Virus record (IMG/VR): IMGVR_UViG_3300033997_000384
Location: 1 to 58,329 of that record
Source of the DNA: a virus
Lineage: Duplodnaviria > Caudoviricetes
Strand: one strand, 5' to 3'
Length of the DNA: 58,329 nucleotides
The position numbers and the translations under genes are program-made. Position 1 is the stretch's first letter; every line of letters begins with the position of its first letter. Below are positions 1,317-20,440 of the stretch, one piece after another. Below the pieces are notes generated by a model. That model was not told the DNA's origin. It searched no databases and saw only the letters and a program-made list of their open reading frames with translations.

Positions 1317-1571
1317 CTATTGCTCGGCCTTCTTCTCCGGTACCGACGGCGCCCCAGGCAACACAGAGACAACAGCCTTAGACACCATCACCTGGCTTTG
1401 CAGGCGATTCTGCATCTCCCGCAAGCACTCGTCCGAGTAGCTCCTAACTCCCTCGCGAAGGCAATCACCTGCCACCTCCAGCGAGTCGACGTAAGCCTTA
1501 GCCATCGGAATGCCTACCGCGGCAGCAATCCCACCCATCACGATTCCGTAAAGCCATCCCATCGAGCTCAT
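1317..1571 (-). CDS. Small protein with N-terminal hydrophobic segment (moron)
   Basis: 84 aa, WLYGIVMGGIAAAVGIP, GGAG upstream of the start. Confidence 0.5.
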   Translation of the reverse strand: MSSMGWLYGIVMGGIAAAVGIPMAKAYVDSLEVAGDCLREGVRSYSDECLREMQNRLQSQVMVSKAVVSVLPGAPSVPEKKAEQ

Positions 1572-1732
1572 TACCGCTCCCGTTATCTGACGTGCCCCGA
1601 CGGCACAATGCCAGCATAACTCTTTTATTGGCGCTTTTTTGTTGACGCAGCGAGGCCGAGATACCTAGGGCCTGGCACTTGGCCATGACCGGCCCTATTC
1701 TCAGCAGCTCCACCACCAGCAAGGAGCACCCC

Positions 1733-2083
1733 ATGAAACGAATCATCGCCGGCCTGGCCCTCTGCCTCGCAACCGCCACGCCCGCCTTCGCCGCCTGTTA
1801 CGGCTCCGACAGTTTCAGCACCTGCACCGATAACGCCGGCAACACCTACAACGTCCAGCGCTACGGCAACACCACGAACGTGCAGGGGTACGGCGCCAAC
1901 GGCTCAACCTGGAACCAGACCAGCAACACCATCGGCAACACGACCTACCACAACGGGACCGCGGCCGACGGCGGGAGCTGGAACGGCACCAGCACCAACA
2001 TCGGCGGTACCACTTACAACAGCGGCACCGACTCGGATGGCAACGCCTACCAGTCGACGTGCAACCAATTCGGCTGCTACTGA
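1733..2083 (+). CDS. Secreted/periplasmic Asn-Gly-Thr-rich protein with terminal Cys pairs (moron)
   Basis: AAGGAG RBS, signal peptide MKRIIAGLALCLATATPAFA, GNT(T)Y-type repeats. Confidence 0.8.
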   Translation: MKRIIAGLALCLATATPAFAACYGSDSFSTCTDNAGNTYNVQRYGNTTNVQGYGANGSTWNQTSNTIGNTTYHNGTAADGGSWNGTSTNIGGTTYNSGTDSDGNAYQSTCNQFGCY

Positions 2084-2320: not shown

Positions 2321-5300
2321 TCAGTCGTCGGCGCGCACCGTCTCGATTCGCTTCCCTGCCATCTCCGTCAGCCGGTTCTTGATCACCTGCAGGCGGTCCA
2401 GCTCCCTCCGCTTCCGCTCTCCGTCCCAGGCACTGAGTCGCACGATGTCCATCCGGGCGTTGATCGCGCTCAGCTGTCGCTGCACCTGGCCCAGCGGCTT
2501 GCGCATGGCCAGGATGTCGCGCTTCTCGCCTACCAACTCCCTCGCTTCATCCATACGGCCCAGCTCCTGCAGACGTTTCACGTCGGCATAGACCCGGCCG
2601 GACTCCTTCAATCCCTCGTAGAACAGCGTGCTGTAGCGGTCATACGGCGCCGGCGCGCCCAGGTCCTTGTAGAAACGCCGGATCGGCTGGTACTCGTGCC
2701 AGCGCTTCGCCGGCTCGTCCTCGCCTTTGGCCGTGCGCCAGATGGTGTCGATGATGCCAGCACCCCAACCGCCGACCTGGCCCAGGTAGCCCTGGATCAG
2801 GTGGTCAGCCTGCAGTGGCGACAACGTGAAATCGTCGCCCAGCACCGAGGTAGCCTCGGAAATAAGGTGCGCAGGCGCAGTGGTGCTGGCCCGGGCGCGC
2901 AGCGTCGGGCTGACCTTCTCCATGCCGGCACTCTCGATGGGCCGACCGGTGAAGGCGTCCTTGTTCGCGTACACGTCGAGCGCCGGCTGGAAGGCCTGCG
3001 GCACCGGCGAGAATGCGAAGGTCTGGGTCACCATCGCCCAGAGGCGGTCGCGGAACAGCTTGCCGCTGGCCTTGTCGTCAATGGCCTGCTCGGCCAGGCG
3101 CTCGGCCAGGGTGCTGACGGCGCCCACCTCGAATGGCTTGGGCAGGTTGTATTGGCCGCCGTTGATGAAGAAGACCCAGTAGCTGTCCTTCTCCCAGTCC
3201 TCCAGCTTCCGGTACCTCTCGTCGTCGTGATTGGCCAGGTACAGCATGATGCTCGCGAGCGCCAGGGCGCCGGTTACCACGCCGAAACGGGCAGCAGCCT
3301 GGCGGTCGCTCGCAGTTCCCTGGCCGAATGCGACCAGAACTGATGGCTTCACACCCGAGCGGTAGAGCTTGTCGAGACCCTGCAAGCGCGCATTCAGGAA
3401 CGGCACCACGCGGATCAGGAAACGCACCGCCGGCCAGGCACCTTCCTGGCTGAAGTCCATCAGATCCCGCGCCTCGTAGGCTGCGCGCAGAAGCCCGTGC
3501 TCTTGGTTCTGTGCAAACACCGCAGCCCGGTTAGAGTTCTCTGCAGCGTTGGCGAAGGCGTTGTACGCATCCCAGCCTGCGGTGAGCAGCTGCGGCACCA
3601 GTTTCGGACCATCCACCAGCTTGGCTCCACGCAGTCCACGGCGCAGCCCCGCTTTCACCTCTTCAGGATCCGCGCCGTAGATGTGGCCGAAGCTGAAGGC
3701 TGCGCCGCTGGCCAGCATCCGGGCGCGCTCCTTCTTGTTGGCCCAAGTCATGCCGCCCTGGAACATGTTCACCGTGATGTTCTTGCTGACCGGTGACGTG
3801 GCAGCCGCCTGCATTGTGTCCCGCAGGTAGTTGGCCACGATGAACTGCAGGGTAATCGTGGTCATGTTCGTGAAGACCCGCTTGAACATGGCCATCGCGC
3901 GCACCGCGAAGTTGTTGAGGCCTGGGTCGGCCAGCGAGGTGAGCGCCTCGAAGACCAGGGCGTCGTCCACCTGGTAGAACACACGCTCGCCAGCCTTGAG
4001 CACGAAGGTCGATGACTTCGGGTCGCGCGCCGCCTCCGGCACCTGCTTGGCGATACCCAGCTGTTCGGCGTTGGCGATCGCCTGCTGGGCGGCCTGGTTC
4101 TTCAGGCTCGCGGTCAGCAGGTGATGGAAGTTCATCAGGGTGTTTTCCAGCAGATCGTTCAGATTCTGCTTGCCGCCCTTCAGCTTCTTGTACGCCTCCT
4201 GCCGGCTCAGGCCCTTGGCGGCGCGCGGGCCGGCTGCCTTGGCCTCCTCGTCCATCACCCGGTAGAACGGGACATAGAACTCGTCCCGCCACATGGCGCG
4301 GCTTTCCGGGCTGATGATGCCGGTCTGCTCGGCGATGGCCAGCACGTCGTCCCGGTACTGCTGGAACTCGCGGAACACCTCGTCGTAGACCTTGGAACGC
4401 ACGCGGCCGTCGGCGGTGGTACCGCGGTTGATGCCCTTCAGTGCGGCGATGTCCTTGGCGTCGAAAAGGTTTTCTCGGCCCTCGGCGGCCAGCTTGGCGG
4501 CTCGGTTACCCGCGATCCAGCCCATGAAGCGCTCGATCTCGGCGGCGTCGCCCAGGCGCGAGAACACCTCGCCAAGGCCCATGCTGCCGTCGTCGCGCAT
4601 GCCGATCACCTTCTGCTGCTGGTCCAGCACGATACGACCGTTGTGCATCATGGCGTTGAGCGCGCCCGCGGCGGCCGGCGCCATGCGGGCCAGTACCCAG
4701 GCGCTGGACGTGATCGAGGATTGCAGGAAGTCGGCGCCGTGCAGCTCCTCGTCCATCTCCTTGAGCGCCGCGTACTTGTCGACCAGGCCCCGGCGGAGCT
4801 TGGTCATCAGGCGGTCGGTGTGCTCGCGGTACCAGTCGATGGCGCGCTGGCGAACGGTGCGCGGCGCGATCTTGCGCAGTGCATCCTGCTCGTCGGCATT
4901 CAGGTCGGGGTGGGCATCAGCAACGTGCGGCCGGCGGGCACCGGCCAACGAGTAGAGATTCTCGTCGGGATCTAGATGTGCTTCAGTTCCGGATCGATCC
5001 GCAGCTGCTCCTTCATCCACTCGGAAGAGGCCTTCATCTCGCGCCGCAGCGATTCGATCTCGGAGTCGCTCAGGCGATAGCTGTCCCTTGTCGAACGTGA
5101 GGAGCGTTCGAGCTTCTGATTGGGTGAGGCCTTCGTAGCCGTAGCCGAAGGTGTCACGCCACCAAGGTTCAATGCTGCCGTATTTGCCACGGACTTCCGC
5201 CAGAGTGGATGGATCAAGCGATAGCTTGCGGGAGTAGTTCTTACCGGTCAAGGCGACCGCTCCGACTACCCGACCGCCGTTGTCCTCGATGTGGGTCTTC

Positions 5301-8300
5301 AGCTGGGCCAGGGTGCCGCCCTGGGTCAGGGTGTCATCCAGGATCAGGTAGTCGCCCGCCGCCACCTTGCCTGCGAAGGTCGGCTGGTTGGCGATTCGCT
5401 CCAGGGCGCTGGACTGGGTGCGGCCAACCTTCTCGGCCTGCACCGGCGCCGTATCGGTCTCCAGCCCGAGGCGCTGGGCGAGGACCTCGGCCGCCATCAG
5501 CGGGATTCGGTTCTTTCCTGCACCTTCGACGGCCAGCACCGGCACGATGCGGGGCTGGCTGCCGTCCGGAATCAACGCACGCACCTGCTCCACGAACTCC
5601 GGGGTCACGGCGTCGCGGGCCACGCGCAGCGCGGCGGCGTCGTCGCCGGCCTTAGCCGCCTCGTAGTCCGGGTGGTTGTTCAGGAAGCTGAGCGGGTGCG
5701 CCAGCACAGTATCCGGAAACTCCTTGGACCAGCCGCGGCGGGAGTACAGCACCGCCTGGTCGGCTCCCTGGTGGCCGTTCTGCCGGCGCAGCCAGGCACG
5801 CGACTGCTCGCCCAGGGCGAGGATGTCGGTATAGGTCCAGGGCACCTGGGGGAACAGCTGGCGCAGCAGCTCGCGAATCTTCGAGAGCACACGCTGCAGC
5901 ATGGTCGGGCGGTCGCCGTCCTCGAGGAGATGCGCGACCATCTCCTGCGCCACGAGCACGCGCTGCTGCTTGGCGTCGAGGCGCTCCAGCACAGAGGCAT
6001 AGGCGTCGCGAATCTGACCGATGCGCTGCCGGCCCTTGGCCGTGGCCTGCTGGCTGGAGTAGAGCCGCTCCATGACGGTATCTAGCTCCTCGCCGAGCAA
6101 ACCGCGAATGCCGCGGTGCCCCACCTCTTCATGCACCGCGGTGTAGATCGCATCGGCCAAGCTGCTGTGGTTGCCGGCGACGATGTAGGTTTTCCCAGAG
6201 CTGCGCACACCGCGCAGGTCCTGCGGGGCCACGCCATCACGCTTCGCGCGGGTGCGGGTCGATAGCGGCAGGTCCTCGAAGTCCTGCACCACCTCGACGC
6301 CGGCCAGCTCCGGCGAAGCCTTCAGCGCCTCGCGCAGCTGATCGGCCGACACCTGCACACCTTGCTCGGTGCCCTCCTGCTGTTCGCCGCCCTGGCGATA
6401 CAGCTGGACGCCGGCATCGGTCTCGCGGGTCTCGATGGCATCCACGAGCTTGTCGAAGGCCTGGTTGATTGCCTTGCGCTCTGCACCAGTCGGGAACGGG
6501 CGTTTCCAGCCCCAGGGTGTAGGGATGGCAGCCTGCTCGGGGCCGTAGTTCAGGAACGGGCTGCTGCCACCCTGCTCCGCAACCTTGTCCTCGACGTAGC
6601 CCTGGAAGGCGCGCGCCGCCATCTCGTGCGGCGTGGTCCAGTAGTCGGTACCGCGGCCCTGGTCCAGCTCCTTGGCGTCCATGGCAAATTGAGTCGGCAC
6701 GCGCCGGGTCTTCTGCTCGCCTTCCTGAGCCTCTGCCAGCATCTTCAGGCGAGACGAGTAGTGACCCATGACGCCGCGCAGGCGGTCCAGCTCGCCGTTG
6801 CTGTCGGCGCTGAAGCCACTGCGGCCACGCACGGCCTTGTAGATCGCACTGATCTGCTCCAGTGCGTCGTTGGTCCAGCGCATACCGCTGAAGGCATTAC
6901 GGCGCGACAGCTTCGCGTCCGGCTTCGTAGAGCGAAGCTCTGTCTCCAGCTGCACGCCGTCGAGGATCTGCTGGGCCACGGTATCGAACGCGGCCAGCTG
7001 TTCCGCAGTCGCCGGCTTGTTGTGGCGCTTCCAGTACTTCGGATCTTTCTGCTCGGCCAGGTCGGCGCGCAGGCGGTCCAGACGATCGGCTACCTCCTTG
7101 CGGGAACGGGCCACGAAATTGTCGGCACGGGCGGTGTCCTCCACGTACTGCTCGGCCTTGTGCTGCATGGTGTCCATCAGCTCCTGGTAGGCCAGGCGCA
7201 CCTCCGACCGAACACCGGAGCCGGTCCGCTTGAATCCCGAGCTGACCGCCTCGCGCTCGAAGTTTCCGGAGGTCTTGAGCGAGCGGGTACCGTCCTCGTC
7301 GATCACCCACTCGGCCGAGGCCTTCCCATCCTGACGACCGAAATAGTGGTCAAGGGCGTGGAACCACTCGTGCGCCAGGGAGCCGGCGCCGTTCATCTTG
7401 GTCAGGTTGATCGCCACCTTCCCCGGCTCATAGTGAGCGCGGGCGCCGCTCAGGCCGTGGCCACGAGCACCGAAGGCCAGGGCCAGCTCGCCGTTCAGGC
7501 TGATCGCCTTGGGCGGAATGTCCATTACCTCGGCCAGGTCGAGCAGGCCGTCGTAGGCGTCGTCGAGCAGTTGCTGCCGCTCTTCCTGGTTGTTCCAGTT
7601 GCCGAACTCGACCCCTCGGAAGCCGAAGGTCTCGATAAAGGCGCTGTCCTTGACCGGACCATCACGGCGCGCGGCGCCGATGCGCTGGGCATTCGCCGGC
7701 CGCGGTAGGTCCGCCTCGCCAAAGGTGGTGTTGGTCTCGATGATCTGCTGCGCGTTGAGGGCCATGTATTCCATAGCCGCCTCACGGCTCGGGAATACCT
7801 GGTCAACGACCTTCACGCGCTTGTAATCGCTGATGGTCCGCCAAATCTCGAAGCCATCACCATCGCCCTGACGCTGCGACACGACGCGATGCTTCAGAGC
7901 AACCGCGATCAGCGGGATGGCCTGCTCGGCCTCCTCGCGCGTGGCGTAGCTGCCGACCTTCTTGGGCTGCTTCTTCCAGTCCTTGAGCCGGCTATCGCGC
8001 ACTTCCCAGCGCCCGACATCGGCAGGGTTGGTGCTACTGATCACCTCGGAAATCTCGAACCGACGCGCCCACGCCGGTCGCGTGTCGCTTTCAGCTGTGC
8101 GACCAGTGCGGGGGCCGGTGGATACAGCACGATCCTTGCGCGCACCTCCGATCTTCTCGCCGAAGTCCTCGATCTTGGCCTTCGCCTCGCCACGGGTGCG
8201 CGGCGCGAACATATCGTTCTGCCCACGCGCCTCGGCCACGTCGGCTGGACGATCAGATCCGGTAAGGGTGAAGTCGGCGCGGTCGCGGTCTGCTTGCGCC

Positions 8301-11300
8301 TTTTGCTCGGCCTGGCGTTGTGCCTCGGCCTCTGCCTGCTCGGCCGCCCGCTGCTGGGCGGCCTGCTCCGTCAGGCTTCGCTCGGTCTGCTGTTCGAGTC
8401 CGAATGGTTCGCCTTTGCCAGCTTCTCGCGGGCCAGGTCGCGCAGACGCTCGCTGCTGGCGATCTTGTCCGCCATCAGCTTGCCGTAGGGGCTCTCCTGC
8501 CAAAGCTTCTCGGCCAGCTGCTCCTGCTCCGTACTCAAGGCTTTCGGCTCGGCTTTCTTCTCGCTCGTCATACTCGTCCTCGTAGCGCTGGGCCTCTGCC
8601 AGCAGCTGCTCGTCGTGGGCCTTAGCGGCCTCCAGGTGCTCGCGCACCCTGTTCGCTACATCGACACCATGCTCTTCTTCGACCTGAGCAATATAGGCTT
8701 CAAACCGCTGCTGCTCACGCTCAATCTCGTCAGCATAACGCTGTTGCAGTTCGCGCTCCATCTGCTCCTGCTGCGCCTTCGAGCCGGCAGCGAAATGCGT
8801 GGTGCCATTCAGCTCGTCACGCAGGGCCTGCTGCAACCACGGGACGCCGCCCAGGTTGTCCATCTCGCCGGCGGGAATGTAGCCGTGCTGGTCCAGCAGT
8901 GACGCCATGTCGTCGATACTGGTTCCGGTCTTGTCGCTCCAGAGTGCCCCCACCCCGGGCACATGCTTGTTGCCCTTGCTGTCGCCCGTAGTGTCCTCGC
9001 GCCACTCGGTCTTGAGGCCGCCCAGGCGGATGGTTGCCTGCAGCAGCGAATCGCGGTCCCGATCCACCTTGCGGCGCGGCCCCTTGCTCGCAGCCGGTTT
9101 GGCGCGGCCGGGCTCTTGCCGGGCAGGCGCGGCCGGCTTCGCCAGGTCGCCGCCCTTCAGCCACTGCTTGAACTCCGCCACCGGCATCGCCGAGACCTTG
9201 CCCATCTGCCAGTCGGCGTCGAAGTTGCTGCGGTACGCGGCCACGGCCGACTCCTCGTCGGGGAAGCCGATCATTACCTTGTGCTCGTCGAAACTGCCGT
9301 CCTGCTGGTTGAGCTGGTCGACGACGAACACCTGGCCGCTCTCCTCCTGCGGCCCCAGGTAGACATCCACCTGCTCGCCGTCGGCGCCAGTGGTGCGGCG
9401 GATGTAGCCGTAGTGGTCGCTCATTGTGTGGCGCCACTCGCTACCGTCCTGTCGCCGGCCACTGCGCTCGGAGCCCCGCGGGTTCTCAATGGAGAGTTCC
9501 AGGCCGTGCACCCGGACCTTCCCCTTCTTGTAGTTGCCGGCCTCGATCTGCGCCGCGGTCGGCGCCGCCAGATCGTTGGTCGGTGACGTGGCGGCCTCGT
9601 TGGCCTTCATGTCCAGAGGACGCATCTCGTGGCGCACAGCCTCCGGCTGCACCTGGATGGCATAGCCGCCCTGCACGCGAATAACGCGCGGCTCTCGGCC
9701 GGCAGCGCGGGCCTCACGGAATGCCTTGCTCGCCTCGGCACCCTTGGGCGCGTCGAACGGCTTGCCATTGGGCTTGCGCAGCAGCTCGCCCTGCGAGCGG
9801 TCACGCGGCTGGGCGGTCGGGGCCTGCTGGTCCATGCCGCGGCCACCCTGCACCTGCTCTGTCGGGACCTGCGGCGCTACCGGGCCGCGCTTGGCGTTGC
9901 CCTCGGCGTCCACAACGATGGTCTCAGGCGCCGGCAGCGCAGCGCGCTCCGGCTCGGCGTCGATGGTCACCGGATCGCGCTGCTGTTCTGCCTGCTGCTG
10001 GCGGGCACCGAGCTGCAGCTGGCCCTCCAGCGGGGCCTGTTCCCCGCGCGGGGTCTGCTGATCCATGCCCGGGCCGCCGCCCAGGTTGGCCGGGTCGTTC
10101 TGCGGGTTGACCCAGTTGCGGGCCTGCTGGGCCGGCTGCTGCTCGCCGTCCACGTTGCGCACCGGGCCGGTGTCCTGCACGTTGCCCTGGCTGTCGCCGT
10201 AGAACACCTGCTCCGGTGGCGGCAGGCCAGCCAGGCCTGGCGCTGGCAGCGCCGCCGGCTCGGGCGTGTTCTCGAAATCGGCATCTGCCTCGCCCTGTTG
10301 GCGAGTCGGCGCCTTGCCCTCGCCCATGGCTGCACCGAGGGAGGCATGGCCGGCACCGCCAAGGGCACCCAGTACGGCGTCGCCGAAGGTGTCTGCGGTC
10401 AAGCTGCGCTGCTCGCCGAGCGCTTCGTTGGTCGAAGCCCTGGCAGCCACCGTCTCGGCAACCTCCTGCAGGCCTTCAGCTGGAGCATCGAACACCAGGC
10501 CGGCAGCAAGGCGCTGGCCGACACCACCACCCACCATCTTCTGCAGCGGGCCCAGCGTGAACTGGGTGGCCAGGCCGCCGACGGCGCCGACCGGAGCAGC
10601 GCCGCCAAAGGCCCCGTCGCGGGCGATGATGGCCAGCTTCTGCCGCGCCTCCTCCTCGCTGGCACCTTGACGACGCATCTCCCGATACACCGACGAGTTT
10701 GCCAGCAGGTCAAGGTCAGAGGTTTCGGCGATACGCTGCTCAACCTCATTGGCAGCAGCGCCGCCGGCCTGGAGGCCTCCGGTTGCCATCATGGCGGTGG
10801 ACTGCGCCTGGCCCGACTTACCGCGGGTTGCGATCAGCACGCCGGCTTGTGGAGCAAACTGGCCCACCAGGCCGGCCATCTGCAGGCCGTAGCCCGCTGC
10901 GCTCGGGTCCTCGCCGAAATCCCAGGTTTCAGGGGCCAGAACGTCGCCGGTCGGCGTGCTCTGGGCAAGCGCGTCCTTGGCGGCCTGGCTCTTGCTGTCT
11001 GCGACAGCCTGGCCCTTCTCGTCCAGCCAGCCGCCGGCAGCACGCGCGGCCGGGTCTATGGCGTCGGCGGCCAGCTCACGCAAAGACTTGATCTTGGGCA
11101 GCTCGGTGCCGTCAGGCAGGGTATTCGACAGCCCCCGGTCCTCCGGTCGGACCATATCGCCGACGCCACTGACGATAGCCCCGGTGCCCTTCAGCAGGCC
11201 GGCACCGGCCTCCTTCACGAAGTCCATAGCCCCGACCTCGCCCCGATCGGCTGTCGGCTGCGAGAGAGTTCCGAGCGTGTCCTGGTCGTACAGCTCGCGG

Positions 11301-11452
11301 GCGCGAGTCTCCCGGCCAGCAGGAACGCGCGGCAGGACTACCTGCTCGAAGTAGAGTTGGCGGGCACGCTCTTGGCGCTCTGGGGCCAGCGCGCGGAATT
11401 GCTCGCTGGCTGCCACGTCCGCCCAAGGGCGGGGTTGGCCGTTGTTCTGCAT
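2321..11452 (-). CDS. Giant polyvalent internal virion/ejected protein (InPase, LPD5/LPD1-like with zincin HEWFH, second HExxGH motif, PRTase, LPD38-like)
   Basis: 3043 aa; GNYKKG..IENP..YGYI..GADG..DV..DEHK (InPase); KIEDFGEKIGGARKD; HEWFH; YWTTPHEMAARAF; HEEVGH; LILDDTLTQGGT; WEKDSYW..PKPFEVG. Confidence 0.9.
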   Translation of the reverse strand: MQNNGQPRPWADVAASEQFRALAPERQERARQLYFEQVVLPRVPAGRETRARELYDQDTLGTLSQPTADRGEVGAMDFVKEAGAGLLKGTGAIVSGVGDMVRPEDRGLSNTLPDGTELPKIKSLRELAADAIDPAARAAGGWLDEKGQAVADSKSQAAKDALAQSTPTGDVLAPETWDFGEDPSAAGYGLQMAGLVGQFAPQAGVLIATRGKSGQAQSTAMMATGGLQAGGAAANEVEQRIAETSDLDLLANSSVYREMRRQGASEEEARQKLAIIARDGAFGGAAPVGAVGGLATQFTLGPLQKMVGGGVGQRLAAGLVFDAPAEGLQEVAETVAARASTNEALGEQRSLTADTFGDAVLGALGGAGHASLGAAMGEGKAPTRQQGEADADFENTPEPAALPAPGLAGLPPPEQVFYGDSQGNVQDTGPVRNVDGEQQPAQQARNWVNPQNDPANLGGGPGMDQQTPRGEQAPLEGQLQLGARQQQAEQQRDPVTIDAEPERAALPAPETIVVDAEGNAKRGPVAPQVPTEQVQGGRGMDQQAPTAQPRDRSQGELLRKPNGKPFDAPKGAEASKAFREARAAGREPRVIRVQGGYAIQVQPEAVRHEMRPLDMKANEAATSPTNDLAAPTAAQIEAGNYKKGKVRVHGLELSIENPRGSERSGRRQDGSEWRHTMSDHYGYIRRTTGADGEQVDVYLGPQEESGQVFVVDQLNQQDGSFDEHKVMIGFPDEESAVAAYRSNFDADWQMGKVSAMPVAEFKQWLKGGDLAKPAAPARQEPGRAKPAASKGPRRKVDRDRDSLLQATIRLGGLKTEWREDTTGDSKGNKHVPGVGALWSDKTGTSIDDMASLLDQHGYIPAGEMDNLGGVPWLQQALRDELNGTTHFAAGSKAQQEQMERELQQRYADEIEREQQRFEAYIAQVEEEHGVDVANRVREHLEAAKAHDEQLLAEAQRYEDEYDEREESRAESLEYGAGAAGREALAGEPLRQADGGQDRQQRASARPGPREAGKGEPFGLEQQTERSLTEQAAQQRAAEQAEAEAQRQAEQKAQADRDRADFTLTGSDRPADVAEARGQNDMFAPRTRGEAKAKIEDFGEKIGGARKDRAVSTGPRTGRTAESDTRPAWARRFEISEVISSTNPADVGRWEVRDSRLKDWKKQPKKVGSYATREEAEQAIPLIAVALKHRVVSQRQGDGDGFEIWRTISDYKRVKVVDQVFPSREAAMEYMALNAQQIIETNTTFGEADLPRPANAQRIGAARRDGPVKDSAFIETFGFRGVEFGNWNNQEERQQLLDDAYDGLLDLAEVMDIPPKAISLNGELALAFGARGHGLSGARAHYEPGKVAINLTKMNGAGSLAHEWFHALDHYFGRQDGKASAEWVIDEDGTRSLKTSGNFEREAVSSGFKRTGSGVRSEVRLAYQELMDTMQHKAEQYVEDTARADNFVARSRKEVADRLDRLRADLAEQKDPKYWKRHNKPATAEQLAAFDTVAQQILDGVQLETELRSTKPDAKLSRRNAFSGMRWTNDALEQISAIYKAVRGRSGFSADSNGELDRLRGVMGHYSSRLKMLAEAQEGEQKTRRVPTQFAMDAKELDQGRGTDYWTTPHEMAARAFQGYVEDKVAEQGGSSPFLNYGPEQAAIPTPWGWKRPFPTGAERKAINQAFDKLVDAIETRETDAGVQLYRQGGEQQEGTEQGVQVSADQLREALKASPELAGVEVVQDFEDLPLSTRTRAKRDGVAPQDLRGVRSSGKTYIVAGNHSSLADAIYTAVHEEVGHRGIRGLLGEELDTVMERLYSSQQATAKGRQRIGQIRDAYASVLERLDAKQQRVLVAQEMVAHLLEDGDRPTMLQRVLSKIRELLRQLFPQVPWTYTDILALGEQSRAWLRRQNGHQGADQAVLYSRRGWSKEFPDTVLAHPLSFLNNHPDYEAAKAGDDAAALRVARDAVTPEFVEQVRALIPDGSQPRIVPVLAVEGAGKNRIPLMAAEVLAQRLGLETDTAPVQAEKVGRTQSSALERIANQPTFAGKVAAGDYLILDDTLTQGGTLAQLKTHIEDNGGRVVGAVALTGKNYSRKLSLDPSTLAEVRGKYGSIEPWWRDTFGYGYEGLTQSEARTLLTFDKGQLSPERLRDRIAAARDEGLFRVDEGAAADRSGTEAHLDPDENLYSLAGARRPHVADAHPDLNADEQDALRKIAPRTVRQRAIDWYREHTDRLMTKLRRGLVDKYAALKEMDEELHGADFLQSSITSSAWVLARMAPAAAGALNAMMHNGRIVLDQQQKVIGMRDDGSMGLGEVFSRLGDAAEIERFMGWIAGNRAAKLAAEGRENLFDAKDIAALKGINRGTTADGRVRSKVYDEVFREFQQYRDDVLAIAEQTGIISPESRAMWRDEFYVPFYRVMDEEAKAAGPRAAKGLSRQEAYKKLKGGKQNLNDLLENTLMNFHHLLTASLKNQAAQQAIANAEQLGIAKQVPEAARDPKSSTFVLKAGERVFYQVDDALVFEALTSLADPGLNNFAVRAMAMFKRVFTNMTTITLQFIVANYLRDTMQAAATSPVSKNITVNMFQGGMTWANKKERARMLASGAAFSFGHIYGADPEEVKAGLRRGLRGAKLVDGPKLVPQLLTAGWDAYNAFANAAENSNRAAVFAQNQEHGLLRAAYEARDLMDFSQEGAWPAVRFLIRVVPFLNARLQGLDKLYRSGVKPSVLVAFGQGTASDRQAAARFGVVTGALALASIMLYLANHDDERYRKLEDWEKDSYWVFFINGGQYNLPKPFEVGAVSTLAERLAEQAIDDKASGKLFRDRLWAMVTQTFAFSPVPQAFQPALDVYANKDAFTGRPIESAGMEKVSPTLRARASTTAPAHLISEATSVLGDDFTLSPLQADHLIQGYLGQVGGWGAGIIDTIWRTAKGEDEPAKRWHEYQPIRRFYKDLGAPAPYDRYSTLFYEGLKESGRVYADVKRLQELGRMDEARELVGEKRDILAMRKPLGQVQRQLSAINARMDIVRLSAWDGERKRRELDRLQVIKNRLTEMAGKRIETVRADD
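4972..5190 (-). CDS. Overprinted +1-frame small ORF at the end of the PRTase domain (start uncertain: GTG 5190 or TTG 5217)
   Basis: Last 35 codons 30/35 G/C-ending versus 12/35 in the main frame (hand count); charged helical sequence. Confidence 0.55.
   Translation of the reverse strand: MANTAALNLGGVTPSATATKASPNQKLERSSRSTRDSYRLSDSEIESLRREMKASSEWMKEQLRIDPELKHI
8371..8571 (-). CDS. Overprinted +1-frame 66-aa ORF inside the giant gene
   Basis: GAGGA RBS then ATG; 57/66 G/C-ending codons versus 29/66 in the main frame (hand count). Confidence 0.65.
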   Translation of the reverse strand: MTSEKKAEPKALSTEQEQLAEKLWQESPYGKLMADKIASSERLRDLAREKLAKANHSDSNSRPSEA

Positions 11453-15471: not shown

Positions 15472-15887
15472 ATGGTCGCGAACAGGTAGACGGTCATGTT
15501 GCCGCTGAAGCGGGTATGTGGCATCGGTGGCGAGACCAGGATCGCGCCGTCCACAACCTGGAACTCCGGCATTCGCGCGATGCGGCCGGAGTTGTACTGC
15601 ATCTCCGAGTTGCTCACCCGCCGCGCCTCACAGAGCCCTGTGGCAAACACCTCACTCGGATAGTCCCCGTGCCAGTACTTCCAGGAGTTGGGCAGGTTCC
15701 AGACAGCGTGCGGGGTGGCGCACGCGAACATACCCGCCCTCGCCTTTGGCGCAGGCAGCGCGTAAGTGCTGGCTGAGTCCATCGCTGGCAGATAGAGGGT
15801 ATCGATCAGTCGCACCGTGAAGGTGTCGGGATCGAGGATGGTGCGCCCGTAGGCGTCCAGCACCAGCAGTCCGTACTGCTCACTCAT
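15468..15887 (-). CDS. Tail tip-associated protein
   Basis: YGLLVLDAYGRTILD motif, ATGA-coupled to the DUF1983-like gene. Confidence 0.65.
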   Translation of the reverse strand: MSEQYGLLVLDAYGRTILDPDTFTVRLIDTLYLPAMDSASTYALPAPKARAGMFACATPHAVWNLPNSWKYWHGDYPSEVFATGLCEARRVSNSEMQYNSGRIARMPEFQVVDGAILVSPPMPHTRFSGNMTVYLFATI

Positions 15888-17095
15888 GCGTTCAGGTTCC
15901 CGAGCTGCACCCGCTTAATGCCGTTCTGGTCGAATATCTTGATATGGGTGTCGCGGATCTCTTGGCGGCCAGAGGTGCCGGCGCTGTTCAGCTCCAGTCC
16001 GCCGTTCTTGTCCAACTGCCAACGCGGCCGCCCGTTGGCCCCCTTCTGCGAGGACTTCAGCACGCCAGCGATGTTGGCATCGGTGACCCGCAGCTGGTCG
16101 ACGTCGAGCATGTCGGCGCGCAGCAGGCCGGCCACGGTGGTGATTGGTTTGCCGGCGGCATCTATCAGCTTGCCGAAGGTGATGGGGCCCAACTGGCCCT
16201 CTTGGATCGAGGCGTCGCGAATAAACGCCGCATCGATGTAGACCTTCCCGTCCACCACCATGAACGGCTTCACCGCGGACTTTTCGGCACCAGGCCGGGC
16301 AATCCAGAAGCGGTCGGCGAGCACGGCGAAGTCGGCGGTCTTCCCGTCGTTGTATGCGCCGAAGCCGGAGACATAGCCGTTCACGTCCAGCTTGAGGGTG
16401 AACTGGGCAGACAGCCCCTGCACCACCTCGGCCTGCTGCTGGATACTCGTGCCGAAGCCGTCGAGGCGCGAGCGCAGGGCATCTTCCAGTTGCGACTCGC
16501 CGAGCTGGCCGGACAACTGCCCCAGCAGGTACTCCGCGTCGGGCAGCGGCCTGGCGAAAGTGCCGTTCGGCGAGTTCGGCGGGCCTTCGATATTGGACGT
16601 CGTGGTGAAGGTGGCCCAGTAGTAGAACCCGGGCATCTCCAGCGGATTCTCGACGCTGGCCGCGTCGTCGCGCACCTTGTCGCTGTAGAACATCCCCGCC
16701 TCGCGGCCGATCAGCTCGGCCTTGCCGAAGTCGTCGACCTCGGCGCGGTAAATGTTCGTGAAGGCGTGGTTGCCGTAGACCTCGTGGGCCGGATCCCAGC
16801 TCAGGTTCACCATGCCGAAGAAACTGCCCTCGGCAAGGAACCCGGACGGCGCGGGCGGCACCGTCATGTCAGGCGTCGGATAGCTCGGCAGCAGCCCGCC
16901 ATCGGGGTTGCCAGGTACACGCAGCTTGGCCACGCCGCCATCCAGCAGGTCGCTCAAGGTCAGCTTGCGGTCCAGCTTGTTGCCCCGCACGCCTTCGCCG
17001 GTCTCGATGATCTCCTTCATCGCCTGGAACAGCGGGCGCAGCTCAGCCGGCACGTTTGCCGGCAGCGCCGGCAGGGTCGTTCTCTTTGTCGTCAT
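15884..17095 (-). CDS. DUF1983/TipJ C-terminal-like tail fibre protein
   Basis: AQFTLKLDVNGYVSGFG..FAVLADRF..PFMVVDGKVYIDAAFIRDASI..RVQLGNL. Confidence 0.8.
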   Translation of the reverse strand: MTTKRTTLPALPANVPAELRPLFQAMKEIIETGEGVRGNKLDRKLTLSDLLDGGVAKLRVPGNPDGGLLPSYPTPDMTVPPAPSGFLAEGSFFGMVNLSWDPAHEVYGNHAFTNIYRAEVDDFGKAELIGREAGMFYSDKVRDDAASVENPLEMPGFYYWATFTTTSNIEGPPNSPNGTFARPLPDAEYLLGQLSGQLGESQLEDALRSRLDGFGTSIQQQAEVVQGLSAQFTLKLDVNGYVSGFGAYNDGKTADFAVLADRFWIARPGAEKSAVKPFMVVDGKVYIDAAFIRDASIQEGQLGPITFGKLIDAAGKPITTVAGLLRADMLDVDQLRVTDANIAGVLKSSQKGANGRPRWQLDKNGGLELNSAGTSGRQEIRDTHIKIFDQNGIKRVQLGNLNA

Positions 17096-17115
17096 CGGTG
17101 CCTCACGGCAAGCGG

Positions 17116-18741
17116 TTACACGATCTCGGCGGCCGAGGTTGCTACCTGGATCGACTGCACCTCGCGCGTGCCCTCGATCTCGATCTCCCAGTCGCGGGCA
17201 TCAGCATACCCGGACGGGAGACGCACCAGGTGCTTGTCCTCGACCTCCAGTTCAGCGGCGATCTCGCCGTCGGCCAGCAGCCGCAGGGTCACCGGATAGT
17301 CGCGGGCGATCACCTTGGCACACGAGAATGCCCCCGCGCCCGGTGGCAACTCATACACCTTGGAGCGCCAGCGCATTGGCATCGCCGCGCCCTTCCCCCA
17401 GCCGACGATGCTGTTCCCTTGGATCAGGCACAGCGTGTCCTTTTCCAAGTCGAAGTAGCCACCGCTGGCACTGACGTCGAAGAACTCGAAGCCATCGCTC
17501 GGCGAAAAGGAGAAGCACCCGCCCTGGTAGAACGCCAGGTAGCGGCCGTCGTAGCGGTATGCGTGGATGGTTGCCGGCTGCAGAGCCTGCCATTGCTCCT
17601 TGGAGATGGCCTGCTCGGTCAGCAGCTTAGCCTCACCGCCACCGACAGCGACCAGCCCGTTGGGCGACGCATACAGTGCGTAGTCGCCCATGTCGACCAG
17701 GGAGCGCCTGGCAACGCACGGCAGCAGCTCGTCCAGCAGCGAGTCGGCCATGCCGGCCGGCGAAGAGCCGGTGATCAGGTGCGGCCTGCCGTTGGTGGCC
17801 ACCACCAGCCCGCCGGCAACCGCGGCGATGCCGACTACCTTCTCGGGCATGGCGACCTGGTAGGACACCGGCCAGGCGTGTGGGCGGAAAGCCTCGCTGA
17901 AGCACACAGTGTTGTCGAAGAAACCAGCCATATAGCCGCCCGGCAGCGCGGTCAGACCGACCATACGCTCGTCCGGCATGTCCCACTCCAGAGACGGCAG
18001 CGAGACGCCCATCTGCTCGCTGAGCACGGCGTCGGTGTAGCTGCCGGTCGCCGCCGGCACAGTGGCGACTTCCTGGAACACGCCGGCGGACTCTGCGCGA
18101 TAGATGCGTTTGCTGATGATGTCGTGCGGCCCGCTCGGCACCGGCGGCAGGGCCACCACCAGGTTTCCACCGGCCGGCGCGCCGGACACCATGTCCCAGC
18201 GCAGCATCGCCGTGCTCGGCGGGCTGGGCGGCCCCTCCTCGCCGAAGCGAGTGATCAGGGTCACCACATAGACTGTCTGCACCGCAGTAATCGGCTGGTC
18301 CTTCACAGGCACCCGGTTGTCCGGCGCGGATACGACTGGCGAGCTGGCAGGCGCCGGCACACCCAAGCGGAAGCTACTGCTCGGATACGGCGGCGAACCA
18401 GCGGTGATCTGGGCGATGCCGCCCATCTTGGGATAGCCATCGCCGGTCCAGTAGACGCGGCTCCAGGCGTCGTCCGCCAAGAGCGACTTAACGACGTCGA
18501 CCAGCTTGCCGCCGCCCCAAACCATCCAGAAGCCTGCGCCGTTGTTGCCGTGCGGGTAGCGATAGAGGCTCGACGGAGAGAGCACGCTGGGCAGGCCGGT
18601 CAGCTGCGCAGGCGCGCGCTCCGGCTTCAGGGTGCCGCGGCGCAGGTAGACGTTTCGCGCGACCTGGGCGTTTTGCTCGGGCAGCAGGCGCTCGTCGACG
18701 ATGGGTAGCTCGCCGCGAAATGCGGCCAAGGCCAACTTCAT
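17116..18741 (-). CDS. Tail nozzle/packaged-DNA stabilization protein
   Basis: 541 aa beta-rich; FRGELP start, FSE..PHAWP and WRSK motifs; position. Confidence 0.7.
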   Translation of the reverse strand: MKLALAAFRGELPIVDERLLPEQNAQVARNVYLRRGTLKPERAPAQLTGLPSVLSPSSLYRYPHGNNGAGFWMVWGGGKLVDVVKSLLADDAWSRVYWTGDGYPKMGGIAQITAGSPPYPSSSFRLGVPAPASSPVVSAPDNRVPVKDQPITAVQTVYVVTLITRFGEEGPPSPPSTAMLRWDMVSGAPAGGNLVVALPPVPSGPHDIISKRIYRAESAGVFQEVATVPAATGSYTDAVLSEQMGVSLPSLEWDMPDERMVGLTALPGGYMAGFFDNTVCFSEAFRPHAWPVSYQVAMPEKVVGIAAVAGGLVVATNGRPHLITGSSPAGMADSLLDELLPCVARRSLVDMGDYALYASPNGLVAVGGGEAKLLTEQAISKEQWQALQPATIHAYRYDGRYLAFYQGGCFSFSPSDGFEFFDVSASGGYFDLEKDTLCLIQGNSIVGWGKGAAMPMRWRSKVYELPPGAGAFSCAKVIARDYPVTLRLLADGEIAAELEVEDKHLVRLPSGYADARDWEIEIEGTREVQSIQVATSAAEIV

Positions 18742-18896
18742 ACAGGGTCTCCTCGGTCCGCGATGCTGGCGTGCTGGTAGCGCAAGGTGAACGCCTTGTC
18801 AGCGTCGTCCGGGTCCTGCAGGTGGCCGGCGGCAAGCAGTGCAGAGAGCAGCAGCCACCGGCAGGCGGCGGTGATCAGCAGGCGGATCGGAATCAT
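18738..18896 (-). CDS. 52-aa ORF absent from the ORF track (MIPIRLLITAACRWLLLSALLAAG...)
   Basis: ATGA overlaps with both neighbours and fills the gap exactly. Confidence 0.55.
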   Translation of the reverse strand: MIPIRLLITAACRWLLLSALLAAGHLQDPDDADKAFTLRYQHASIADRGDPV

Positions 18897-20440
18897 GTGC
18901 GAGCCTCCAGCACGGCAATACGCGAATCGAGTTCATCTTGGCGCTGCGCCAGGCCGCGAGCCATGAACACGTTGAGTTCGTCGTAGCGCATCGAGTAGCG
19001 ATTTCCGGCCTCTCGCCCCGCAACCTTGATCGTCACGCCATCGTCTTCGAACACAGGAGGCACGGCCGCCCACTCGTCGAAGCAGACAAAGCCGTAGGCG
19101 AATGGATCGAGGCCATGCAGCTCCATGATGGCCATGATGCGCTGCACGGTCTGGCCAGGATGCAATCGGGCCGCACCCGCGCCCTTCTTCTCGACCGCCT
19201 CGAGCCACTGGTACACCCCGATCTCGGAGGCGATCTGCTTCGCGGCGGCCAACTCACTGCCGGAGAGGGGGCGAACCGGGGTCTTTTCACGGGCATCGGA
19301 GGTCTGGATGGCTCCAGTTACCGCCCATACGGATGACCATCGGGCGTACCCCCAGCCACACATGTGGTTGTTATCTCCGTTAGGGCCAAAGCCGACAAAG
19401 GTGCCCGGGGCGTGGATCACATGGACCCCGCCCCCATCCCAGTTGTTGATTCGGACAAAGCGGTTACCGCTGCCGTCAATCTCGTGGTAGAGCACCCCTC
19501 GTGCAAACTCCCCGAATCGGATAGCACCGCCCGCCTCGATCGACCTGTCGTTCCCGGCCCGTACTGCCCAGGCATTGCCAGTCGTGAGGAAGCCAATGTA
19601 TCCGTCGTTGCAGTGGAGTGAGCGATTCCCCCAGTTGGTGTCGGAGAGCCGCAGCGTTGGGGACGCCCCGGCCACCACTATTTCGTTGCCGTCGCAGTAG
19701 AAACCCTTACCGCCGTATGTACGCACATAGGTGGCATCGGTCATGTGGATGCCGCCACCATAGGTCTGGCTATACCAGCCTACGGCGCCATTGCTGCGGT
19801 ACCAGCCGTTGATAGCGGTGTCGGGCGGCCAGTAATCATGGGTGTGGACCGCAGCTGCTGCATCGGTGATTCCATAGCCCGCCAATGTCGTCGGCTTGCC
19901 TCCCAGATTCGCGAAGACAAACGCGCTTGTGTCGAGCTTGCCCGTACCCAGGTCGCTAATCTGCCGTTGCAGCTTGCCCAACGCACCCAGAAGCGTGTCA
20001 GCGGCAGTAATCGCGGTGCTGGTCGCGAAAACGATCCCGGTCAGCGCCAAAGCTCGAACCGTGTTGCCAAGGTCCCGCCACGTCTTGTCCCCTGCGTAGA
20101 ACTGCGAGGACTGGCCGGGCTCGATCAAATCCTGCTTCGCATCGAACTCGCCAGCCGTCAAGCACTGCACCACGTAGGCGCCGGCGGACCAGGCACGCGC
20201 CGTGGTGCCCTCCAAGCCGCGCGTTACTCCGCTTAGGGTGTATGGACCGCTTCCACTGCGCGCGGTGTAGCGGATGATCTCGTGGGCCTCGGGACCACCA
20301 AGCGAGTCTGTAATGGTGAGCAGGCCGCCATCAGCCGGCGGCAGGTTGAATGCAGCGCCCATCGCCTGGACGGACAGTGTGTTGGCCGCAGCAGCGACTC
20401 CAGCAGCGAGCTTGACCTGAACGAAGTTGGCGCGGCTCAT
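18893..20440 (-). CDS. Tail fibre with C-terminal peptidase S74 intramolecular chaperone
   Basis: KPTTLAGYGITDA, GWYSQTYGGGIHMTD (PilV/fibre-like), TSDAREKT..YSMRYDEL plus coiled coil. Confidence 0.85.
   Translation of the reverse strand: MSRANFVQVKLAAGVAAAANTLSVQAMGAAFNLPPADGGLLTITDSLGGPEAHEIIRYTARSGSGPYTLSGVTRGLEGTTARAWSAGAYVVQCLTAGEFDAKQDLIEPGQSSQFYAGDKTWRDLGNTVRALALTGIVFATSTAITAADTLLGALGKLQRQISDLGTGKLDTSAFVFANLGGKPTTLAGYGITDAAAAVHTHDYWPPDTAINGWYRSNGAVGWYSQTYGGGIHMTDATYVRTYGGKGFYCDGNEIVVAGASPTLRLSDTNWGNRSLHCNDGYIGFLTTGNAWAVRAGNDRSIEAGGAIRFGEFARGVLYHEIDGSGNRFVRINNWDGGGVHVIHAPGTFVGFGPNGDNNHMCGWGYARWSSVWAVTGAIQTSDAREKTPVRPLSGSELAAAKQIASEIGVYQWLEAVEKKGAGAARLHPGQTVQRIMAIMELHGLDPFAYGFVCFDEWAAVPPVFEDDGVTIKVAGREAGNRYSMRYDELNVFMARGLAQRQDELDSRIAVLEART

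Follow-up and report, generated by a model that had tools for sequence, protein, structure and literature searches.

A conserved small open reading frame overprinted on the phosphoribosyltransferase domain of a phage polyvalent protein

Small phage genes embedded out of frame in longer ones are familiar from Rz1 inside Rz of phage lambda and from the overlapping genes of phiX174. Here we describe a comparable arrangement in a stretch of tailed-phage DNA of 58,329 nucleotides (Duplodnaviria; Caudoviricetes; positions 1 to 58,329 of IMG/VR record IMGVR_UViG_3300033997_000384), called the window throughout: an open reading frame (ORF) in the +1 frame of the gene for a polyvalent protein of 3043 amino acids (aa), lying over the end of its phosphoribosyltransferase (PRTase) domain. 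As in Rz1/Rz and phiX174, the small protein would be read in the +1 frame wholly within a longer phage gene, and selection acts on both frames. In contrast to those cases, the window ORF is tied to one domain and follows the PRTase through stand-alone genes, the plasmid protein KfrC and virion proteins, its product has non-overlapping homologues elsewhere, and it is found in 34 sequence clusters that range from 43 to 68% GC.

Two further kinds of known system are relevant. Programmed frameshift genes such as dnaX (gamma product) and prfB share with this locus an alternative frame that stops nearby and would give a truncated form of the long protein, but here no conserved slippery site was found, and the shifted frame encodes a domain of ~36 aa with independent homologues and often its own ATG. 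In toxin-antitoxin and effector-immunity pairs, a small gene is linked to a growth-inhibitory one. The present small gene is likewise linked to, and overlaps, a gene whose product, in the case of the RA3 PRT domain, inhibits growth when overproduced, as described in the main text of PMC8124265, and it too has orphan copies. It differs from such pairs in that the overlap extends over 15-70 codons out of frame and not over a few bases, and in that binding and neutralisation are putative.

The closest relatives are proteins that share the PRTase itself. The article of Iyer et al. (2017; PMC5512222) uses the term 'large polyvalent protein' and treats solo and embedded PRTases as one distinct group; the 3043-aa protein, with its InPase, LPD1, PRTase and LPD38 domains, is of the phage type. 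KfrC of the IncU plasmid RA3 and of IncP-1alpha plasmids has a PRTase of the same family at its N-terminus (45-51% identity, tblastn) and a +1 ORF at the same place, whereas the downstream frame-0 domain is the KfrC C-domain instead of LPD38 and the context is plasmid partition and conjugation instead of the virion. The article of Iyer et al. (2017), leaving aside its supplementary alignments, has 0 uses of 'frameshift' or 'overlapping' and describes no second frame. Passages of two RA3 papers (PMC8124265, PMC7414963) mention no internal ORF, and full-text literature searches found no earlier description of the +1 ORF.

Codon choice and selection in the two frames

The +1 ORF, whose translation (5217 to 4972, minus strand) ends in DSYRLSDSEIESLRREMKASSEWMKEQLRIDPELKHI before the stop, covers the final PRTase helix together with the linker that follows (Table 1). 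It was pointed out in a first-pass annotation made from the window sequence, which had both the coordinates and the peptide right; the start coordinate given there, 5190, is that of an in-frame GTG. Over the overlap, the number of frame-0 codons ending in G or C (GC3) drops to 11-13 per 35 codons, compared with an ORF mean of 28.9, and G/C at frame-0 position 1, which is the +1 wobble position, reaches 30-31 per 35 codons (ORF mean 25.0). The switch to rare frame-0 codons described in that annotation is borne out by the counts: CGA occurs six times, GGA three times and CTA twice. There is one further GC3 dip of this kind in the 3043-aa ORF, at codons ~948-1000.

The chance expectation was calculated from 100,000 synonymous randomisations of frame 0, using the codon usage of the ORF itself. 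A frame-0 GC3 of 13/37 or less was found in 0 of them. The +1 frame, in contrast, was open in 56,766 of the randomisations (57%), and the observed +1 GC3 of 31/36 was attained in 71,564 (72%). The significant anomaly in the window sequence is thus the frame-0 choice of rare codons (CGA, GGA, CTA, GAT, GCT). The high +1 GC3 that had been offered as an argument for the small gene (30/35) is correct as a count but fails as evidence, because it is largely set by the frame-0 amino acids. The window sequence alone is no proof of a second gene; the decisive support comes from its relatives. A sequencing error or recent indel is ruled out, since the arrangement of frame 0 and the +1 frame is identical in all of them.

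Substitutions in the overlap follow the +1 frame. In the PRTase body, the mean pairwise differences at frame-0 positions 1, 2 and 3 are 0.105/0.043/0.296 in the Pseudomonas clade and 0.032/0.016/0.145 in the Stenotrophomonas clade, the ordinary pattern in both. In the 35-codon overlap, the corresponding values are 0.286/0.151/0.095 and 0.113/0.039/0.042, so that the most variable position is the +1 wobble and the periodicity is that of the +1 frame. Variants within clusters behave in the same way: over the 25 codons from the first Leu of the +1 motif (the L of LTxSEIESL), 65 are non-synonymous in frame 0 and synonymous in +1, against 31 of the reverse kind, whereas over the 45 upstream codons the numbers are 34 and 132 (Fisher test, odds ratio 8.1, p 3.5e-14).

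A more local signature is seen at the frame-0 sequence R-D-R, which the +1 frame reads as part of its motif. Among the 82 family-wide segments described below, the first Arg codon is CGA or AGA in every one, compared with 50 of 286 Arg codons in the 50 codons upstream, and the Asp/Asn codon ends in AT in 77, compared with a background of 63/314.

Frame 0 is itself under constraint here. The window PRTase module and 23 shorter PRTases, most of them from stand-alone genes of 234-280 aa, can be aligned along the whole module (41-63% identity); in this alignment R229 and R231, the arginines of R-D-R, are nearly invariant, and D137, D138, G143, G144 and T145 are invariant. The window protein itself has the acidic motif (DD[T]) that binds phosphoribosyl pyrophosphate (PRPP) in PRT type I cores, in the form YLILDDTLTQGGT. 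The many stand-alone PRTases of 235-270 aa obtained in the search for shorter homologues stop in frame 0 just past the C-terminal helix, ending ...LTESEARYLxxxxDADxIRDRIAAAE or ...IRNRIIAERQKGFF. Judged by these ends and by the near-invariant arginines, frame 0 over the overlap is genuinely coding. The conserved part therefore begins with about a dozen codons that truly encode two products, the last PRTase helix (..LRDRIAAAR..) and ..SEIESLRRE... Beyond these codons, frame 0 is no more than a linker, and +1 dominates selection. Taken with the conservation described in the next section, the +1 ORF is very probably a real coding ORF under selection. The idea that it is a fossil of a partner gene, raised as an alternative in the first-pass annotation, is rejected because selection in the +1 frame is ongoing.

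The +1 ORF across the PRTase family and beyond

With residues 1930-2260 as a protein query, we obtained 472 long homologues. The first loci compared were the DNA of 5 genomic and 25 viral loci, and the +1 frame is open with the same kind of peptide in the window and in 30/30 of these. The peptide reads YRL[ST]xSEI[ED]SLRREM...DPELKHL in the Pseudomonas type, SMLTPSEIESLQAEYRASGQWAKEQLAKDPELKHLGPAGG in the Stenotrophomonas type and RDLTPSEIESLQREFAASAAWMDEMIRTGEINRL in more distant loci, in each case up to the stop. In frame 0 the homologues can be aligned through ...LSPExLRDRIAAxR...GDRSGxEAP, and beyond this point the sequence depends on the domain that follows; in 30/30 loci the +1 stop falls at the GDRSGxEAP divergence point or 5 codons later.

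For a family-wide set, an alignment of 20 stand-alone PRTases yielded 80 further viral loci. These were pooled with all other loci, and the frame-0 motif alone served for selection, which left 82 distinct segments falling into 34 clusters (>85% nucleotide identity). The clusters are not phylogenetically independent, which weakens the case made from them. Frame 0 was the route of ascertainment for 79 of the segments and the peptide search for the other three (L035, L036, L037). All 82 PRTase-tail segments carry the +1 motif (Y)RLTxSEIESLR... in an uninterrupted frame, over a GC range of 0.43-0.68, and this frame stays open for 25-50 codons from the first Leu of the motif. Even the five low-GC loci (0.43-0.47) remain open for 29-35 codons past this Leu. 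Stops breaking the +1 frame in close homologues, which the first-pass annotation had named as a refutation of the small gene, were found in 0 of the 82 segments.

The ORF is not confined to long proteins. In ten distinct stand-alone PRTase genes it continues 10-17 codons past the PRTase stop. That stand-alone genes already hold the ORF, and that the frame-0 module boundary coincides with the +1 stop, supports the earlier suggestion of a partner captured with the domain. At locus L038 (genome G356, ~1483-1746, minus strand) stops interrupt the PRTase frame, whereas the +1 ORF is intact; it has 87 codons counted from a GTG and would give 51 aa if read from its ATG. The PRTase query used found no PRTase in genome G356, and the small gene seems to have persisted there after its host gene decayed.

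A separate observation concerns the viral contig L048, where tandem copies of the dual-coded unit follow the PRTase core in both frames: frame 0 reads PDALRTQILAAG / PDASRDRG / PDTVRDRILAAG and the +1 frame has successive ..LT[PS]xE[IL]..L motifs. The repeat matches the database protein P0213.

Could the conserved +1 frame exist without a second protein, as a by-product of frame-0 constraint, as a nucleic-acid signal (RNA structure, or the GATC site in CGAGATCGA) or as a decaying relic? In the window the openness of the +1 frame and its GC3 are what chance predicts, the frame-0 R-D-R is itself conserved, and the peptide has no match in Pfam, NCBIfam or the PDB. However, variation is concentrated at the +1 wobble over ~25-35 codons and not over a short site, the ORF stays open at low GC, extends beyond the PRTase stop in stand-alone genes and survives where the PRTase frame is broken, and non-overlapping genes encode homologous peptides from different DNA. 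We consider this explanation extremely improbable.

The homologous peptides were found with a profile of 14 +1 peptides searched against 1.84 billion representative proteins, which matched 144 proteins at E<=1e-3, nearly all of them 33-260 aa long. The motif of the conserved 36 residues is (Y)RL[TS]xSEIESLRxE..S..W...L, and L4, E8 and S11 are invariant in the alignment of the 14 lineages. Many matches are gene calls of the overlapped ORF itself, recognisable by N-termini of the form ..SPSPKPATSS.., the +1 reading of GLTESEAR; in other matches the N-terminus is unrelated or a small protein carries two tandem motifs. Scanning 401 genomes of the Pseudomonas family for the peptide gave 7 with a match, and three of the loci are free-standing genes. 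In one of them (L039, 58 aa) the start codon and the stop of a KfrA_N gene overlap as ATGA, and a type IV (T4) coupling protein gene is adjacent; a second (L040, 53 aa) is flanked by an MmeI-like gene on one side and trbL on the other; the third (L041) follows a KfrA-like ORF, as assigned by eye. BLASTP with the window peptide gives 1e-7 against L040 and 1e-6 against L039. Such free-standing small genes are located in conjugative elements.

Single-sequence AlphaFold2 modelling of 4975-5193, minus strand (73 aa, the GTG ORF plus one codon) predicts a helix at residues 43-66 with a predicted local distance difference test score of ~95 and disorder at residues 1-34. Together with the 82/82 intact frames, the +1 periodicity and the free-standing homologues, this lends strong support to the original proposal of a real small helical protein. 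The +1 peptide belongs to no Pfam or NCBIfam family, has no relative in the PDB (best E 0.24) and shows no evident membrane or lipoprotein signal. In an Atlas search, a stored homologue matched nothing but unnamed clusters, with scores <0.9, and a cluster look-up gave no name except 'hypothetical protein'. KfrB was considered as a relative and ruled out, as the KfrB sequence lacks the motif.

In a tblastn search with the window PRTase module, 169 plasmid records matched; the proteins are labelled phosphoribosyltransferase or, in the case of IncP-1, KfrC. In the IncP-1 record L123 (KfrC 2492-3838) and the RA3-like IncU record L124 (KfrC 2393-3532), KfrC is a PRTase fusion with the +1 ORF embedded, of 56 and 53 codons from ATG respectively; the peptides are MASTDSPK...LTQSEIASLRLEMKQSIEWGQAELRRRREQGNSSPRQ (IncP-1) and MESNNSPKAKPDTSEKHYQLTPSEIESLRQEMRQAGEWAKAELKRLNAQESKS (RA3-like), each up to the stop. 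None of the gene tables examined, from four plasmid records, lists the ORF, the PLSDB tables being incomplete. One database protein, P0247 (235 aa), carries the helix motif at its N-terminus in frame with the IncP KfrC C-domain (NF042916, 3e-50). That such a fusion is the general form was ruled out: the two complete plasmids compared, L127 and L128, match P0247 in two pieces and in different frames of a single PRTase-KfrC coding sequence (tblastn), and P0247 is a single frame variant.

The PRTase family is divergent. The window PRTase falls below the gathering score of Pfam PF00156 (Table 1), and its membership is assigned from full-length similarity to proteins named phosphoribosyltransferase or KfrC. 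The same family is also found fused to Csb2 (type I-U CRISPR-associated, PF09609) in proteins of ~770-800 aa (P0337, P0343-P0344, P0351-P0352, P0358-P0359 and others).

Table 1. Positions of the +1 ORF, its host gene and related features (nucleotide coordinates are those of the window)
Feature	Position	Strand	Description
Whole +1 ORF	4972-5217	minus	First in-frame start, TTG 5217-5215, to stop; 81 codons + stop
GTG, best candidate start of the +1 ORF in the window lineage	5188-5190	minus	72-aa product
Conserved +1 peptide domain	4975-5082	minus	SYRLSDSEIESLRREMKASSEWMKEQLRIDPELKHI, 36 aa, predicted helical
Dual-coded core	5054-5062	minus	Frame-0 CGA GAT CGA (R-D-R) = +1 (C)C GAG ATC GA(A), S-E-I-E
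+1 stop TAG	4972-4974	minus	At frame-0 module boundary
Polyvalent protein gene, frame 0	2321-11452	minus	Single ORF, 3043 aa
InPase domain	residues 634-766 of the 3043-aa protein		Pfam, 1.8e-56
LPD1 domain	residues 1596-1676 of the 3043-aa protein		Pfam, 2.7e-20
PRTase module, frame 0	5030-5746, residues ~1903-2141	minus	PRPP motif YLILDDTLTQGGT and C-terminal helix LSPERLRDRIAAARDEG
Pribosyltran (PF00156)	residues 1987-2077		Pfam, E 0.0046, 16.7 bits, under the 26.3 gathering cut-off
LPD38 domain	residues 2744-2922 of the 3043-aa protein		Pfam, 4e-43
Second embedded +1 ORF	8371-8571	minus	Inside the 3043-aa ORF, codons ~960-1027; 66 codons with ATG, MTSEKKAEPKALSTEQEQLAEKLWQESPYGKLMADKIASSERLRDLAREKLAKANHSDSNSRPSEA up to the stop

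Possible expression of the +1 ORF

Start codons recur at defined places in the family. An ATG stands directly before LTxSEIESL in 19/34 clusters, where it is formed by the frame-0 codons GAT GCT GAC (D-A-D), and the GAT of D-A-D is retained even at 66-68% GC. Two more recurrent positions lie upstream, one at K-H-G or Y-G (CAT/TAT Gxx, giving ATG) and one at V-R-G/E/D (CGT Gxx, giving GTG). GTG 5190 in the window is of the last kind and arises from frame-0 V-R-G (GTC CGT GGC). The synonymous T of its CGT is invariant in 24/24 aligned relatives of the window's wider clade; the distinct sequences compared that lack an ATG three codons downstream all have CGT at that Arg, whereas the ATG-bearing lineages have mixed Arg codons. 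The spacing of Shine-Dalgarno-like sequences is good in some lineages, with AAGGAG-N9-ATG in L043 and GGAG-N7-ATG in L049.

Other observations tell against a start of its own. The 33 of 34 clusters that have ATG or GTG at one of the three recurrent positions are weak evidence, since about 9 in 10 would be expected by chance in ~50 open codons. The window ORF has no ATG upstream of the motif, only GTG and TTG (GTG 5190, another GTG 11 codons further on, and two TTGs in frame). Upstream of GTG 5190 the Shine-Dalgarno match is poor and unconserved, and frame-0 synonymous variability shows no sharp drop at this codon.

The missing ATG of the window lineage would also fit a programmed +1 ribosomal frameshift after the PRTase core, which would produce the N-terminal domains and the PRTase in a truncated protein that ends in the helix and lacks LPD38. 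The rare CGA, CTA and GGA codons are clustered at the frame switch, a G-rich AAGGGA-like element is found just upstream in several clades, the +1 stop is the module boundary, and in three database proteins (P0233, P0241, P0157) the PRTase frame runs straight into the helix. However, the rare codons are accounted for by the +1 amino acids (CGA GAT CGA encodes E-I-E, CTA gives Tyr), and in the DNA alignments the 10 codons that precede the conserved +1 domain contain no slippery site common to the clades. The codons before the domain instead vary by clade: AAG GGA CAG CTA, CGA GGG GGT CTA, AAG GAT GCT, GAA CCG GCT and others. Stand-alone PRTases have the same ORF with an ATG exactly at the conserved start, and free-standing homologues have their own starts and unrelated N-termini. 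The three in-frame proteins are joined at three different points, as random indels would be; they were treated as indel variants and set aside as frameshift products. A frameshift thus seems decidedly unlikely, and the +1 ORF probably has its own, internal initiation.

Genomic setting and possible role

The polyvalent gene lies downstream of same-strand tail-fibre-like genes and an internal virion protein gene (window 15884-20440, minus strand); the internal virion protein has 541 aa and belongs to phrog_511 (3.9e-142). This neighbourhood fits a polyvalent protein that is packaged in the virion and ejected. A DNA search of the region against GenBank phages, near or distant, gave no match, and a protein search against the same phages gave only 3 weak records.

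The 3043-aa ORF contains a second embedded +1 ORF (Table 1), where frame 0 is a low-complexity linker with a GC3 dip. Its +1 peptide belongs to no Pfam family and is conserved in L122, the one relative compared; between L122 and the window, codons 100-120 of the compared stretch have 4, 4 and 0 frame-0 changes at positions 1, 2 and 3. The signature of this ORF is that of the one on the PRTase tail.

The explanation that we propose is as follows. The mRNA of the polyvalent gene would also be translated in the +1 frame to give a small protein, with internal initiation at an ATG in the majority of lineages and, in the window lineage, at GTG 5190. From GTG 5190 its N-terminal part would be a disordered stretch rich in Ser, Thr, Pro and Ala, dictated by the PRTase frame, and its conserved C-terminal 36 residues would be helical. 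It would be an ancient companion of the mobile-element PRTase family, beginning inside the 3' end of the PRTase gene where that gene stands alone. Where the PRTase has been built into longer proteins, such as phage polyvalent proteins and KfrC of IncP-1/IncU plasmids, the ORF would have become wholly embedded and would move with the domain. The peptide would work jointly with the PRTase; most likely, it would hold the enzyme in check in the cell where the polyvalent protein is made. On balance, we favour the view that the ORF is a conserved, selected and previously unannotated overlapping (overprinted) gene that accompanies this PRTase family.

A role as modulator or antidote of the PRTase is possible, and we put it forward tentatively; the first-pass annotation had suggested a cognate inhibitor that is made during assembly but not injected. 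The linkage is strict, with the ORF on 82/82 PRTase tails and a module boundary that keeps it whole. According to the main text of PMC8124265, RA3 KfrC has an N-terminal PRT type I domain, its overproduction slows growth, and a DDT-to-AAA change removes the slowing of growth by the PRT domain; this DDT-dependent inhibition is the only evidence bearing on catalytic activity of the PRTase. Both the linkage and the toxicity of the RA3 domain are circumstantial. The same main text states that stable cloning of kfrC1-249 of RA3 failed. Residue 249 lies ~10 codons short of the end of the +1 ORF in the RA3-like record, so that a 1-249 fragment would clip the ORF; a connection between this clipping and the instability is suggestive, but loss of the C-domain explains the result equally well.

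A more specific version, which we regard as rather doubtful, makes the peptide the antidote of an injected PRTase effector. Both would come from the same mRNA in the producer cell, and the PRTase, also that of KfrC, would stay inactive until delivered without the peptide. Overprinting would make the pair inseparable in domain shuffling, free-standing copies would be orphan antidotes against incoming PRTases, and polyvalent genes would have several hidden partners, as the second embedded +1 ORF hints.

Several results do not sit easily with a role at the PRTase. Full-length RA3 KfrC, which includes the ORF, still slows growth when overproduced, again by the main text of PMC8124265. In genomes G272 and G356, which have free-standing or remnant copies, the PRTase was not found with the query used; these copies fit either orphan antidotes or a PRTase-independent role. 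The small proteins with tandem motifs and the fusion to the KfrC C-domain in P0247 likewise suggest a role that is not tied to the PRTase.

The same results bear on the alternative that a real small protein merely hitch-hikes on the PRTase gene and serves as an adaptor or effector helix in its own right, with another binding target, for instance coiled-coil proteins of the KfrA type, conjugation or partition machinery, or a host factor. The free-standing copies beside kfrA and T4SS genes, the two genomes in which the PRTase query found nothing and the tandem motifs fit such a helix as well as the linkage and the toxicity fit a restraining partner. One free-standing copy is translationally coupled to a kfrA-type gene beside the T4 coupling protein and another lies by trbL, and RA3 KfrC is reported in the main text of PMC8124265 to interact with KfrA, VirD4 and VirB4. 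The ORF is nevertheless kept on all PRTase tails, including those in phage contexts without kfrA, and it has stayed whole with the PRTase through domain shuffling. Orphan copies, moreover, are also typical of effector-antidote systems, which counts against an independent helix. We consider this alternative unlikely.

Polyvalent proteins and KfrC are now read as single polypeptides. If the PRTase tail does encode a second protein, then kfrC of well-studied RK2- and RA3-type plasmids, as well as many prophages, contain a gene that has been overlooked, and past truncations and deletions of kfrC would also have altered the +1 ORF. The mobile-element PRTases called 'enigmatic' in the article of Iyer et al. 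(2017; PMC5512222) would gain a handle in the form of a partner of 30-70 aa. The ORF would be an unusually clear case of an overlapping gene, retained across 43-68% GC, and would show that domain shuffling can carry a hidden gene along with a protein domain.

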